Of a stretch of 64,000 nt of DNA, positions 59,258-64,000 are shown in pieces (the stretch's first letter is position 1; every line of letters begins with the position of its first letter). The position numbers were made by a program, and so were the translations under genes. The stretch comes from Schmidtea polychroa (Eukaryota). The stretch is from the NCBI GenBank assembly GCA_044892525.1, contig CM097885.1:31994001-32058000 (forward strand), written 5' to 3'. Under the pieces are notes generated by a model that ran no database searches, had not been told where the DNA came from, and saw only the letters and a program-made list of their open reading frames with translations.

Positions 59258-59367
59258 AGTAGATGGATTGGGCACCGCTGGCACAGGGCACCGCTAGCAC
59301 AGTACCCCCCCTCCCCCCCCGTCGGTAAGATTTTCAAAAATATTCTAAGTCTAAAAGTACATTTTTT

Positions 59368-59982
59368 TTCAAGGTCAAATTTAAACAAAGACATATGACT
59401 CATCAAGGTCATTGAAACAAAGAACATGAGTCATCCTATGACTCATAAAAATTTTCAAGGTCATTTAAACAAAGACCATGACTCATCCGATGACTCATCA
59501 AGGTCATTTTCAAGGGCATATGACTCATAATATGACTCATCAAGGTCAAAAAAATTTTCTCAAGGTCATTTAAACAAAGACCATGACTCATCAAGGTCAT
59601 TTCAAGGTCGTATGACTCATAGTATGACTCATTTGACCTTGAAAAATTTTTTTCAAGGTCATGTGACTCATCCTATGACTCATCAAGGTCATTTTCAAGG
59701 TCATATGCCTCATCCTATGACTCATCAAGGGCATTTTCAAGGGCATATGACTCATAGTATGACTCATTTGACCTTGAAAAAATTTTTTCAAGGTCATATG
59801 ACTCATCCAATGACTCATCAAGGTCATTCTCAAGGTCATATGACTCATCCGATGACTCATCAAAATTTTCAAGGTCACCTGAGTCATCCTATGACTCATC
59901 AAGGTCATTTTCAAGGTCACGTGACTCATCCAAGGTCATTCCCAAGGTCATATGAGTCATCGCGATGACTCATCAAGGTCAT
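59368..59982. promoter_or_regulatory. Subterminal array of AP-1 (TGA[C/G]TCA) and CAAGGTCA nuclear-receptor-type motifs
   Basis: Manual count about 24 TGASTCA and about 20 CAAGGTCA (either strand) in ~615 bp, plus repeated TAAACAAAG. Confidence 0.7.
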
Positions 59983-60137
59983 ATTATTATTTTTAAAAAA
60001 TATTATTATTTTTATTATTATTTTTAAAAATATTATTATTTTATTTTTAATTTTTTCAAAGTTCCCGCCAACGAAAATTAATAATCGATAGCTCATTTTA
60101 AAGCTCAATCCAAGACCTTTCGAATGAGCCATATATC

Positions 60138-60305
60138 TTATTATTATTATTATTATTATTATTATTATTATTATTATTATTATTATTATTATTATTATTA
60201 TTATTATTATTATTATTATTATTATTATTATTATTATTATTATTATTATTATTATTATTATTATTATTATTATTATTATTATTATTATTATTATTATTAT
60301 TATTA
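60138..60305. repeat. (ATT)n microsatellite
   Basis: Directly visible. Confidence 0.98.
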
Positions 60306-60430
60306 GTATTAATCTATATACACCGAGTCTATATACTCTGAGTCTATTCGACAAAATATTTTGTCCCCCTATGGGTAATGCTCACAAGGGTACTGGTCAC
60401 GCTCAACAAATCAACAAAACATACATTTAT

Positions 60431-60931
60431 TTAAACAATAAAATAATGTAAAATTAACAAAGGTAAACTAAATATTGATGCACTTCTATTCGCAGCATTA
60501 TTGTTAGAAATTGGTAACGTTGAATTGATTTTCAGATATTCTATTGATCCTTTGATTGTTTGAATTTCTCTTAATAATAATTCAATCTTTTTTAACAAAT
60601 AATCATGCTTCTTATCAATAATCTTCATATTCTTTTTATTTTCAGTAATAGAGTTATTGAAAACCTCAATATGATCAATCAATTTAATTTTTATATTTTG
60701 TATATATTCAAATGTTAGTTCATAACTGTTTTCTAAATTCTCCAATCTTTGAGATATTCTTTTTCCTGGATGCTTTGACCATTTTGGTTTATCGAGAATA
60801 TATAAAATATCCATCAACTTGGCTGTATTCGGACAAACACATATTGATTTATTAAAAGACTCCACCGTTATTGTTGTATTGTGTGAGCACACACTCGTTA
60901 TAATAATTAGCAATATGAATAGAGTTTTCAT
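60431..60931 (-). CDS. Putative surface glycoprotein: signal peptide, coiled coil, GPI-like C-terminal signal (166 aa)
   Basis: MKTLFILLIIITSVCS leader; N-X-S/T sequons NTT, NKS, NNS, NST, NRS; heptad-rich middle; small-residue stretch then hydrophobic tail IFSLPLLILHYFIV. Confidence 0.7.
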   Translation of the reverse strand: MKTLFILLIIITSVCSHNTTITVESFNKSICVCPNTAKLMDILYILDKPKWSKHPGKRISQRLENLENSYELTFEYIQNIKIKLIDHIEVFNNSITENKKNMKIIDKKHDYLLKKIELLLREIQTIKGSIEYLKINSTLPISNNNAANRSASIFSLPLLILHYFIV

Positions 60932-61036
60932 GGTGTATCAAATCAAAACCTTTCTTTTACATTTATAGTCTATCAACCAATCAAAATCATCCGGTATTAG
61001 TATAAATAAAACATCATATTTTAAATTATTGTAAAA

Positions 61037-61557
61037 ATGTCTCAATTTATGGAAAATCTTTTAAGAGAACTCGTCAACAGGAATATTATGGAAAGCCTAT
61101 GTTTCCTGGTCGATGGGACCGAAAAGATTATAGAAGGTAATCACATTGATTATGACGATGTGATCAATTCTGATTGTCTCGAAACCAAAAAATTCTATTT
61201 TAATAGAATTTTTAACTGTCTATGCGACGATCAGATGAAGTGGACCCGAATACTAGTAGGGTTCGCTTATATGAAAATAATAATCCAAAGAAGTCTATGG
61301 GACTCAGAGCACTATTATCAGTGGTCTCAAGAAGTAATACTTTTATAATTTATATTTTATTAATATTTATTTTCTAGATAATCAAGTCAAAGTTTCAACC
61401 ATGGATTGAAGCCAATGGCGGATGGGGAGTACTCAATCAACTCGCCAGAAATGCAAAAGAAATAGACGATCAGAAAAGAAAATTTAAAAACTATGTAAAA
61501 CTTGCAACAGGTGTTGCTATTTTGTATATTTTAACCAGATTTTTAAATAAAAATTAA
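61037..61557 (+). CDS. Bcl-2 family protein, two exons (61037-61333, 61378-61557; 158 aa)
   Basis: BH1-like IFNCLCDDQMKWTRILVGFAY; after a 44-nt GT-AG phase-0 intron, BH2 FQPWIEANGGWG and C-terminal anchor LATGVAILYILTRFLNKN. Confidence 0.85.
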
Positions 61558-61640
61558 TATAGTTATTTTTGTTTGATTTTTAAATAAATTTTTAAATAAC
61601 ATTTTAAATAAATTTACAAACACTAATTAACTAAGATTTA

Positions 61641-62030: not shown

Positions 62031-62158
62031 CACTTTAAAACTAAATTATAAGTTTGTTTATAGATTTTCTTTGTTAAATTTGCATGTCATTTGCATTTAT
62101 GTTGCAATTAATAAAGAGAAAAAAACAAATCTGACTAATACATTTATTAAATATAACA

Positions 62159-62569
62159 TTAAAATATTTGTGAAAGTCTAGCAGACATAATTTTCCAAAT
62201 AGGAGAATATACATCATTATTATCAACTTTATATCCCTGGATTGCAATTGTTATATACCAATTTTCATTTTCTTTGAAAGCGATTTCATCAAAGGAATCA
62301 TAAAATCTTGCATATTTATTGTTGAACCATGCATGTTGATTACACGATAGATTCGAATCTATCCGTTTAAAAACATCATCAATAGTTTTGACATCAATCA
62401 TTGAAAGCGTGCCGGATAAGAATTCAAATTTAGTTGGAATTAGCTTGACTGGTGCAACCAATTTCATATTGATTTCTTCTTTCAAAAAATACATTTTGTA
62501 GTTGTGGAACATTTGAACTGGTTGTACCATTTCTTTAGGTTTTTCGGTGCTTGAAATTTTCTTGGTCAT
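62159..62569 (-). CDS. Hypothetical viral-type protein (136 aa)
   Basis: Clean ATG ORF with upstream TATAAAAA, TGACTCA and CCAAT motifs; family not confidently recognised. Confidence 0.65.
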   Translation of the reverse strand: MTKKISSTEKPKEMVQPVQMFHNYKMYFLKEEINMKLVAPVKLIPTKFEFLSGTLSMIDVKTIDDVFKRIDSNLSCNQHAWFNNKYARFYDSFDEIAFKENENWYITIAIQGYKVDNNDVYSPIWKIMSARLSQIF

Positions 62570-62917
62570 CGTGAATAATGAATAAATTTAAATGTTACAG
62601 GGTTTTTATACCTTTGACTCATGCCTATCAACCAATCAGATTATAGCATGTCTTTGTTTAAATTGCATTCAAAATGCATTGATGTTGCATTGTCACATGT
62701 TCTATTTACAGATTTATTATTAATGTTTAAATTATTACATGTTTTGATATATGTACAGATTTATTATTAATATGTTTCATTATTATTAATGTTTTTACTA
62801 TTATTACTATTCATATTTCTATTACTATTACTATTACTATTATTATTATTATTATTTCAAATATAAAACACAATAAAACACAATAAAAAAGATAAAACAC
62901 AATAAAAAATACATTTA

Positions 62918-63382
62918 TTAATAACCCAAATCTACAATCTTGGAGTAGTGAAACCTTCTCAGAGTTTTCACTAACTCCCATTCGACATATCGCCGATATC
63001 GATCGGCGCAACATGAGCATCCGATGATGCACTGGTACTCTGGCTCCATTTGTTTGATGGTTCTGTTAATCTTTATATCCCACAGAAACTGGTGAAATAC
63101 ATCCATGATTCGAATTTGAGTCGCATAGAATATCAGATCTGGAATGATCTCAGGTTCGCGATCCTTGATAATTTCAATAATTTGAGGATAATAATATTTT
63201 ATCCTTTTTATCATAACTTCTAAATATTTCTCTAAAATAATAAATAGTAAATAATGTGAAAAAAAAATTTTAAATTTACCGGAATCGTCGATATCTTTCA
63301 TGAGGGTTGCAGAGCTTGGTAATTTGTACATAGTGTTGAAAAAATGAATTCTAAACAAAAACCGTTTGTTTAAATCAATCAA
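62918..63382 (-). CDS. Hypothetical protein (up to 154 aa; likely ATG start at MYKLP)
   Basis: Open ORF packed between neighbours; contains CIIGCSCC; no recognised family. Confidence 0.55.
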   Translation of the reverse strand: MIDLNKRFLFRIHFFNTMYKLPSSATLMKDIDDSGKFKIFFSHYLLFIILEKYLEVMIKRIKYYYPQIIEIIKDREPEIIPDLIFYATQIRIMDVFHQFLWDIKINRTIKQMEPEYQCIIGCSCCADRYRRYVEWELVKTLRRFHYSKIVDLGY

Positions 63383-63404
63383 TAACCAATTAGAAATTAA
63401 CCAA

Positions 63405-63842
63405 TTAGAAATCGACCAATGAAATTATCTCATTTCGAACATTGTCAACAAATTCTCTATACTCCAAATTTCTCAACCCCAACATGACAACCTTTCCACT
63501 AGCAAACACGTTGACACATATAGGGTTATATTTTAATAGTCTTAGTGCCGGAAACAATTCCGGTTCAAACATACAATCACATTTTTTCGACATGTTATAT
63601 AGATTGATACTATGTCCCATATCCATAGTAACGGTAATTGATTGGATTTTAATATTATTTATTCGATATTGTAATTTATTAATATCCAAAGGTTTCTTAC
63701 ATCCCATGATTCTGCATTTACCAGTCTTGAAAAATATTATCGGATATTTCCCACTTCTATCGATAATTTGCTGGGGTTTCCCTGGTGGGAACCTCATATT
63801 CGATACATCAAAATTTCCTCGATAATTTATATTTGCTAACAT
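63405..63842 (-). CDS. TATA-binding-protein-like protein (145 aa)
   Basis: Two TBP repeats: IIFFKTGKCRIMG and NIKIQSITVTMDMGHSINL...FEPELFPAL...VNVFASGKVVMLG (cf. TBP YEPELFPGL, IFVSGKVVLTG). First repeat shortened; no introns. Confidence 0.88.
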   Translation of the reverse strand: MLANINYRGNFDVSNMRFPPGKPQQIIDRSGKYPIIFFKTGKCRIMGCKKPLDINKLQYRINNIKIQSITVTMDMGHSINLYNMSKKCDCMFEPELFPALRLLKYNPICVNVFASGKVVMLGLRNLEYREFVDNVRNEIISLVDF

Positions 63843-63941
63843 TATTAAATCATTTATGAAAATTAGTCTTTATATACAAATTGAGCACGAGTTCATTAAA
63901 TCATCGAATATAAACAAATACACATTTATAAAATATTTGAA

Positions 63942-64000
63942 ATGGAATTAAGAAATGATGCTGTATACCAAATCGTTGGTCCGAGTGGTAGTGGAAAAAC
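63942..64000 (+). CDS. P-loop ATPase N-terminus, probably Polinton A32/FtsK-like packaging ATPase (truncated by window end)
   Basis: MELRNDAVYQIVGPSGSGK(T): Walker A within the first 20 residues, as in Polinton packaging ATPases. Confidence 0.7.
   Translation, partial: MELRNDAVYQIVGPSGSGK

Follow-up and report, generated by a model that had tools for sequence, protein, structure and literature searches.

A TBP-like gene and a candidate ATAAAC promoter box in a Polinton of Schmidtea polychroa

Results

The window analysed here is a 64,000-nucleotide (nt) stretch of the 781-Mb genome of the planarian Schmidtea polychroa (G000:C1:31994001-32058000), and its right flank was read in adjoining stretches of the same contig. 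A complete Polinton/Maverick of 18,738 bp extends from position 59258 of the window to G000:C1:32071995. Its left arm carries genes for a coiled-coil-like protein, a Bcl-2-like protein, an acidic protein, a putative single-stranded-DNA-binding protein (SSB), a Cys-containing orphan and a TBP-like protein, and is followed by a packaging and capsid module that starts with an A32-type ATPase. For its class, there is nothing unusual about the Polinton as such, its Bcl-2 or its SSB. What stands out is a (Y)ATAAAC box on the virion genes, in an element that also carries the TBP-like gene of the clade.

Two promoter classes are present in the element: a host-type class with CCAAT and TATA boxes in the left arm, and a (Y)ATAAAC class in the packaging/capsid module. 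The coiled-coil, Bcl-2 and SSB genes are preceded by CCAAT and by TATAAA(T/A) at -36 to -41, and the TBP gene by TATATAA. TATAAAC, at -33 to -42, precedes the ATPase, basic, capsid and acidic genes; for the ATPase, this candidate late promoter lies on the plus strand at 63909..63915, 33 nt upstream of the start. In related elements, the interval 12-90 nt upstream contains ATAAAC for 18/18 ATPase, 7/7 capsid, 9/11 penton-like, 8/13 integrase, 5/8 basic and 3/5 protease genes, with a background of 0.057 per upstream window. One of six genes for a 121-amino-acid (aa) protein has the word in this interval; in the remaining five it lies at -98 to -107. Only 5/50 TBP and 3/14 SSB genes carry it there. 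Near-duplicates were removed from these counts, start codons were picked automatically, some of them wrongly, and the loci had been selected for carrying TBP.

The box might be a by-product of AT-rich sequence, of poly(A) variants or of protein constraint, with the TBP-like gene as passive cargo. The genomes are indeed AT-rich, the genes are packed end to start, and TATAAA and CATAAA are weak poly(A) variants. However, YATAAAC occurs 93 times in sense and 6 times in antisense orientation in 14 virion modules, and the box falls in two codon phases as well as in intergenic DNA. The YKQ of the ATPase tail is encoded TATAAACAA in all 23 tails having YKQ (27 distinct tails), with 0.49 expected for each, in sequences that are related and not independent. 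In 7/7 sister stretches of the same genome, TBP stands head-to-head with the ATPase and TATAAAC lies at -33 to -41; the box is thus present where no same-strand gene ends upstream. Gene ends use AATAAA, which follows seven of the eight, whereas YATAAAC follows none, and this rules out the box as a poly(A) signal. Against passive cargo also stand the codon differences between this TBP gene and that of the sister copy L117 (14 synonymous, 13 non-synonymous). The strand and codon tests largely refute the by-product explanation, which we consider very improbable.

For a control, TBP-less Polintons were sought in IMG/VR and in phage collections, and none was found there. A scan of prokaryote genomes gave four Polinton contigs. 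L122 has both TBP and box, L124 could not serve for comparison since its ATPase is interrupted at the contig end, and L123 and L125 have homologous modules with no TBP gene in view and no box before the module genes. All four contigs sit in bacterial metagenome-assembled genomes, a placement that is probably due to binning contamination.

The TBP-like gene (63405..63842, minus strand) encodes 145 aa that match PF00352 (E=1.6e-15). In the predicted model (pLDDT 95), the protein adopts the two-repeat saddle of TBP, with 145 residues aligned to yeast TBP (Z 12.4, rmsd 2.8). The modelled C-terminal lobe is complete and the N-terminal lobe is without long helices; the missing helix is presumably the binding place of TFIIA, Mot1 and TAF1. 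The protein has 109 short TBP-like homologues (37-97% identity; 37-63% to the TBP-like genes of other Polintons) and is 23-25% identical to cellular TBP. A profile of it collected the 80 related loci used here, of which about six, L093-L098 with 25-29% identity, are apparently unrelated TBPs that stayed in the count. At least one Polinton core gene lies beside the TBP-like gene in 33/80 loci; among the 31 loci that measure at least 3 kb, the number is 24. The ATPase is a neighbour in 22/80 loci and the SSB-like gene adjoins in 21/80; the Bcl-2, coiled-coil, acidic and 137-codon (Cys-containing) genes do so in 0/80. Judged from these sequences, the TBP-like gene is an old gene of a wide Polinton clade, with an SSB-like neighbour. 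Recent capture of a host TBP is ruled out by the clade homologues, the core-gene neighbours and the identity of about 25% to cellular TBP. Other TBP-bearing Polintons (L033, L021, L046, L074, L082) have differing cargo: a ubiquitin-conjugating enzyme, a dual-specificity phosphatase, a leucine-rich-repeat protein, a phospholipase A2-like domain and KilA-N.

Among 70 sequences, phenylalanines F38, F97 and F113 are invariant (70/70), and the first-lobe phenylalanine position is taken by K22/P23, the N-lobe being mapped by eye. Since the four intercalating phenylalanines of TBP are not all present, the protein is classed as TBP-like and not as a canonical TBP. The acidic stirrup of the C-lobe, EPE(L)F, is kept (E93 69/70, E95 70/70, L96 62/70); stirrup and three phenylalanines together are conserved in 62-70 of the 70 sequences, and the DNA-facing residues N6, F38, Q67, F97 and F113 in 64-70. 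In TBP, the two phenylalanines of the N-lobe insert into the TATA box at its 3′ end, and it is at this end that ATAAAC departs from the TATA consensus.

The same features would fit a different function. The box could be a real promoter whose reader is host TBP/TFIID or a helper virus, and the TBP-like protein a decoy that dampens host transcription by soaking up TFIIB or by competing with host TBP, in line with the host control proposed in the preliminary description. TATAAAC is one position off a canonical TATA box, the protein keeps the acidic stirrup and has lost the N-lobe helices and apparently one phenylalanine, and its gene shares an arm with Bcl-2 and a surface-type protein. However, the C at position 7 has been retained even between elements with ATPases only 36-40% identical, and the DNA-facing residues listed above are conserved. 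Moreover, the TBP, SSB and Bcl-2 genes mostly have TATAAA(A/T) or TATATAA, and a decoy leaves the two promoter classes unexplained. We regard a decoy as unlikely, with a chance that is still appreciable.

The preliminary description of this DNA had counted six tightly packed intact genes. All six are present, but three of them (Bcl-2, acidic and 62918-63331) are not single open reading frames (ORFs). The outermost gene (60431..60931, minus strand) encodes a coiled-coil-like orphan of 166 aa, hydrophobic at its N- and C-termini (hydropathy peaks at windows from residues 1-7 and 150-156), with five N-glycosylation sequons. It has only two homologues, 93-94% identical, and is found in 0/80 related loci. 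From hydropathy alone, the protein is possibly surface-anchored, and a GPI anchor is plausible. The interval 60932..61036, between this gene and the Bcl-2-like gene, reads as a bidirectional host-type promoter, in which each of the two neighbouring genes has one CCAAT box and, at -36, a TATAAAT.

The Bcl-2-like gene (61037..61557, plus strand) is predicted to comprise exon 61037-61333, a 44-nt GT..AG intron (61334-61377) and exon 61378-61557; the ORF 61037-61348 ends before BH2, and the remainder runs from 61378. The first exon has a BH1-like motif, KWTR (NWGR in the best Pfam hits of the genome), and the second a BH2-like motif, WIEANGGW, followed by a hydrophobic tail, so that BH1, BH2 and a C-terminal membrane anchor are all recognizable in the sequence. 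The two parts match PF00452 with E=0.0086 and 0.34, each below the cut-off, and Bcl-2-like loci of sister families pass it. The 44-nt segment is identical in 14/14 close copies. In five diverged relatives the exon flanks are conserved and the segment measures 44, 45, 48, 51 or 54 nt, always GT..AG; the ATPase lies about 3 kb away in three of these five, as here. A search for longer homologues of exon 1 found none, and the best Pfam Bcl-2 hit of the genome has only BH1 in common with the gene of the element. In another family (L113 and G000:C1:15406917), a TBP-like gene is paired with an intronless, unrelated-looking Bcl-2 (26%; PF00452 above cut-off), hinting at repeated Bcl-2 capture.

Bcl-2 homologues are reported adintovirus cargo, and published adintovirus maps bear Bcl2 and SSDBP labels (PMC8502044). 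The giant Gypsy elements of planarians named Burro carry a BCL2-like motif (PMC6431247), and the present genome holds Bcl-2 matches inside 2-3-kaa frames that resemble Burro elements. The likeness is that of a mobile element of the same kind of host with an apoptosis regulator; here, however, a separate two-exon Bcl-2 gene stands in a DNA element, whereas in Burro the motif is a domain of a retroelement polyprotein.

The acidic protein gene (61641..62024, minus strand) has a predicted first exon at 62009-62024, an intron of 45 nt (61964-62008) and TATAAAC at -38; the intron measures 41 nt in 6/14 copies, and the main exon is free of indels. The Cys-containing orphan (62918..63331, minus strand) has predicted exons 63280-63331 and 62918-63231 around an intron at 63232-63279, and three CCAAT boxes upstream. 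Its protein has no Pfam match, and a homologue lies beside TBP in 6/7 sister stretches. Because this intron measures 48 nt here and 49 nt in 13/14 copies, the frame that stays open through it would be incidental, and the 137-codon ORF is ruled out as a real unspliced gene. The splicing of all three genes is predicted from such comparisons. None of 15 listed joints, among 58 joints of sequencing-run contigs, matched a predicted intron; one contig has a loose poly(A) end at 61565, immediately beyond the AATAAA of the Bcl-2 gene, but it comes from a run only guessed to be RNA and is too weak to count. In L021, L026, L027, L028, L035, L038, L042 and L048, the SSB-like genes have splice-acceptor-like tracts upstream, often with an acidic ORF, and short introns seem widespread in this Polinton clade.

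The gene at 62159..62569 (minus strand) encodes a 136-aa protein with a predicted OB fold (model pLDDT 92) and 106 relatives by sequence. Its top structural matches are ASFV CP312R, DUF2815, Enc34 SSB and T7 gp2.5 (Z 7.5, with rmsd 4.0 and 125 residues aligned, then 7.3, 7.1 and 6.8; next 5.5). These Z values are moderate, and all four top matches are of the gp2.5 type. Many uncharacterised giant-virus proteins are matched with E 1e-6 to 1e-3, nothing was found in Atlas, and Pfam gave no consistent family for 90 homologues. The model thus makes the protein most likely the SSB of the element. It resembles T7 gp2.5, Enc34 and CP312R in its OB fold, but with only 4-11% identity and Z below 8. T7 gp2.5 has an acidic C-terminal tail, which the protein of the element does not have.

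Since the TBP-like gene adjoins SSB-like (21/80) and ATPase (22/80) genes, the TBP-like protein and ATAAAC could instead act in replication or packaging, for example as a binder of an origin or packaging site together with SSB and polymerase. Rolling-circle Rep proteins also weakly share the fold (Z 6.0, 5.2). However, the word stands on the sense strand at TATA-like spacing before start codons, and no ATAAAC word is found in the left terminal repeat. We consider this alternative improbable.

The genes right of the window complete a Polinton core. The preliminary description had seen a Walker-A ORF at the edge of the window and had predicted a protein-primed DNA polymerase (pPolB), an rve integrase and an adenain protease further on, and all four were found. 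The ORF starts at 63942 (63942..64000 in the window, plus strand) and encodes a 208-aa A32-type packaging ATPase with Walker A, Walker B and ITQ motifs; its PF04665 match (E=3.6e-7) is above the cut-off, which rules out a cellular P-loop protein. It is followed by a basic 177-aa ORF, the integrase with a chromodomain, a penton-like ORF of 333-351 aa, a 121-aa ORF, the putative capsid gene, the adenain-type protease, a low-complexity region with intron-like segments and the polymerase. The integrase has D-D-E motifs; its PF00665 match (E=1e-5) and its chromodomain are both under the Pfam cut-off. At L016 2560-2640 it contains an 81-nt GT..AG insert, nearly all ATT microsatellite, which relatives are without; the insert is intron-like, an in-frame intron that would read as poly-isoleucine. 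The protease (PF00770 E=4.6e-6, above cut-off) has His and Cys motifs and probably a 5′ end on a separate short exon. At L016 6770-8700 there is an acidic, apparently multi-intron gene with TATAAAC upstream, followed by CATGC-containing repeated units that also occur beside the right terminal repeat.

The 1130-aa polymerase ORF matches phrog_1907 DNA polymerase (E=1e-19), carries Exo and Pol motifs and is 31% identical over 1197 aa to a relative having PF03175 (E=2e-21). It has no PF03175 match of its own at E<0.1, which would fit the description of the PolB class of beta adintoviruses or group 1 Polintons as divergent and far from pfam03175 (PMC8502044).

The major capsid protein of Polintons is a double-jelly-roll protein. 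Its gene is putative here, named from size and position and because 403-424-aa ORFs of relatives are homologous to it; the encoded protein had no match in Pfam, PDB sequences, NCBIfam or PHROG. In this copy the gene is split into two overlapping ORFs, so the suggestion that the element might be intact does not hold. Among the 150 copies scored, which all have an identical 57-aa stretch, 117 have a capsid frame of at least 414 codons and 33 do not, this copy included. A 182-codon capsid frame is common to G000:C1:32062330, C1:114531096 and C1:237215082, and the split version may itself have been copied. The penton-like ORF stands one gene upstream of the capsid gene, where Polintons have a single-jelly-roll penton; it is conserved in 12/80 loci, has no family match and is likewise a putative assignment from size, position and homology to relatives.

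The element was inserted into a decayed Gypsy pol remnant (57906..59257, minus strand; reverse transcriptase (RT) end, RNase H and integrase; PF17917 E=4.5e-12, PF00665 E=9.5e-7) that contains stops and frameshifts. As the preliminary description had observed, the junction lies inside the Gypsy RT: the minus-strand RT frame reaches 59257, the AGTAG terminus begins at 59258, and the RT picks up again beyond the right end (L017 6855-7358, PF00078 E=4e-25). Polinton termini are AG...CT. Here the right terminus reads ...CTACT and is directly followed by AAGGAT, the hexamer that had been predicted as target-site duplication and that stands at 59252..59257 (plus strand) on the left; a perfect 6-bp duplication was also present at 9/10 other end pairs sampled. 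The anticipated inverted copy ending in CTACT exists, but the left terminal inverted repeat measures about 1.6 kb (59258..60857, plus strand; inverted match to L017 5471-6995) and not about 870 bp. Left and right repeats are 99.8% identical over the inner 642 nt and about 91% in the repeat-rich outer part. The repeat takes in the 3′ 427 bp of the coiled-coil gene and a (TTA)58 microsatellite (60138..60311), of which the right repeat has a shorter version. The element has AG...CT ends, terminal inverted repeats and a duplication in the 5-8-bp range, typically 6 bp, and is a classical Polinton/Maverick (adintovirus type), not a protist 'Polinton-like virus'. Of the contrast that had been drawn between its open ORFs and the decayed transposons around it, the decay is borne out by the Gypsy remnant; in the element, the putative capsid gene is split and three left-arm genes have predicted introns.

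The repeat of about 600 bp that had been noticed in the left arm is an array (59369..59985) of TGA(C/G)TCA (24 words) and TCAAGGTCA (19 words), for which shuffled sequences gave maxima of 3 and 2. We take TGA(C/G)TCA to be the AP-1 consensus site and TCAAGGTCA the NR5A/ERR-type receptor consensus site, which makes the array a candidate inducible enhancer. It is kept in 13/14 other copies, one copy not being measured, with 19-36 AP-1-type and 13-34 TCAAGGTCA words; tandem amplification alone would likewise yield high word counts. AP-1 arrays are not a clade-wide trait, as 11 related contigs, most of them without termini, have 0-5 words. Planarian fos-1 and jun-1 are induced by wounding (PMC5515462). 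From this, one may guess that the array drives wound induction of the element.

The family is young and has been very active recently, with several hundred copies, and this copy was recently inserted. The youth and high copy number that had been proposed agree with 1,320 exact occurrences of the 23-nt terminus in the genome (650 forward, 670 reverse; control 0) and with 28 near-full-length matches to the left 4.7 kb at 91-100% identity (31 candidates scored). Among the matches listed, the flanks at 14 left junctions are all different. The eight coding segments of 14 copies contain only two frame-breaking indels, and the intergenic segments show many. The copy number of the element and its genes rules out single-copy host genes. 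Inverted pairs of Bcl-2 exon 1, 12-15 kb apart (G000:C1:628052/643386, C1:1347841/1361237, C1:90715216/90727713), suggest copies whose terminal repeat grew to include the entire left arm twice. L115-L121 are mosaic sister subfamilies with an ATPase 86-99% and a TBP 54-99% identical to this copy (98% and 60% in L120), which suggests that arms were exchanged between TBP and ATPase and that the box was kept.

At 12800-14128 and 14951-15200, the window also contains a further Polinton polymerase, decayed and 47% identical to that of the element, next to a repeat with five words of AP-1 type; this is probably the terminus of a different Polinton family. Other long open frames lie at 9469-11277, 18078-20333 and 24619-25095; by eye, we take them to be a hAT-like transposase, a host gene of IQ/ubiquitin-like-domain type and a calmodulin-like EF-hand gene.

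Discussion

We think it probable, though not by much, that host factors drive an early arm of this Polinton and that its own TBP then reads the box for late genes. This would be a two-step programme in the host nucleus on host RNA polymerase II (Pol II). Host factors acting through the AP-1/nuclear-receptor array and the CCAAT promoters would switch on the early arm, Bcl-2 would keep the cell alive or delay its death, and the SSB would assist the protein-primed polymerase in copying the element. The trimmed TBP would then bind ATAAAC and, through the acidic stirrup that it keeps, recruit TFIIB and Pol II and thereby turn on the virion genes. Copies whose capsid gene is split, such as this one, would be served in trans.

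Several points weigh against this programme. The binding of ATAAAC by the TBP-like protein and box-driven expression are predictions only. TATAAAC is near a normal TATA box, which host TBP might read, and one of the four DNA-intercalating phenylalanines is seemingly replaced in the by-eye alignment. For the same job, six viral proteins are needed in herpesviruses; here no partner was identified. Early and late genes are not cleanly divided, as the box also stands at 5/50 TBP genes, at 8/13 integrase genes and at the left-arm acidic gene, and in this copy the protease gene has TATAAAT, not TATAAAC. The TBP-less control consists of two contigs, L123 and L125, both incomplete, with a polymerase of another type and from a single binned genome; because the other loci were selected for TBP, the co-occurrence of box and TBP is barely tested. 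Finally, KSHV ORF24 needs all four phenylalanines (PMC12529657).

The preliminary description had taken the left arm for a host-control cassette. Genes for a Bcl-2-like and a TBP-fold protein are indeed there, but they do not form one captured cassette: the TBP-like gene is an old gene of the clade, one gene left unnamed in that description is SSB-like, and Bcl-2 is known adintovirus cargo. It is more likely that the TBP-like gene serves the late transcription of the element itself than host control.

The closest parallel is found in beta- and gamma-herpesviruses, where a viral TBP (EBV BcRF1, KSHV ORF24, HCMV UL87) goes with a TATT late box (PMC4893493, PMC12529657). In both cases, a TBP fold is encoded by a DNA virus of the nucleus that has no RNA polymerase of its own, and structural genes have a variant TATA box; as in herpesvirus late genes, this box stands without upstream elements. 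Unlike the herpesvirus proteins, the TBP of the element is a stand-alone protein of 145 aa and is closer in sequence to cellular and archaeal TBP. Its box is ATAAAC and not TATT, and there is no six-protein complex in view, nor any ORF matching such families in Pfam. The design also differs because ORF24 is without acidic TFIIB contacts and needs the four phenylalanines (PMC12529657), whereas the TBP of the element keeps acidic residues. The element may at best work like the herpesvirus system, by analogy, and is not a member of it.

Like cellular TBP (PF00352) and giant-virus TBPs, the protein is predicted to be a two-lobed saddle (Foldseek E 9e-8 to Heterosigma akashiwo virus TBP). It differs from cellular TBP in its length (145 vs about 180 residues), in the absence of N-lobe helices and in the apparent replacement of one intercalating phenylalanine. 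Giant viruses pair TBP with their own RNA polymerase, whereas this element encodes none.

With the adintoviruses (class Polintoviricetes), as Polintons/Mavericks are also called, the element shares a size in the 13-25-kb range and six tested features, which are inverted termini, a 5-8-bp duplication, a pPolB, an rve integrase, a packaging ATPase and an adenain protease (PMC8502044, PMC4028283, PMC10748475, 10.64898/2026.06.19.733378). What sets it apart from described Polintons is a TBP-like gene that runs through its clade and goes with a matching upstream box, together with terminal repeats built of AP-1-type words and many short predicted introns. In the available parts of PMC8502044, TBP figures only in a figure legend on MELD viruses from non-animal datasets, and those of 10.64898/2026.10.13.758929, 10.64898/2026.06.19.733378, PMC10748475 and PMC12220804 contain no relevant mention. 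A TBP/box system in animal Polintons was not found in the literature searched, the scope of which mostly left aside subscription papers and Repbase reports.

We put forward, tentatively, that a broad clade of animal Polintons has a single-protein late switch, in which a 145-aa TBP reads a private ATAAAC promoter, wired here to an AP-1-rich terminal enhancer. It is about as conceivable, and to be held as loosely, that this TBP was remodelled in one lobe, the one reading the box at its 3′ end, and that the switch was reached independently of herpesviruses. According to the available parts of 10.64898/2026.06.19.733378, no virions of animal Polintons have been seen. How and when the capsid genes carried by these elements are switched on is a question that a self-encoded TBP with a private box addresses. 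A test of an autonomous viral cycle would be cheap, involving one small protein and a 7-base word in a type of host where RNA interference works. The TBP-like protein would be a natural minimal TBP with changed specificity. If the proposal is true, Polintons have an autonomous programme, from early to late genes, for which no helper virus is required, and this element could be inducible by wounding or stress in a regenerating animal.

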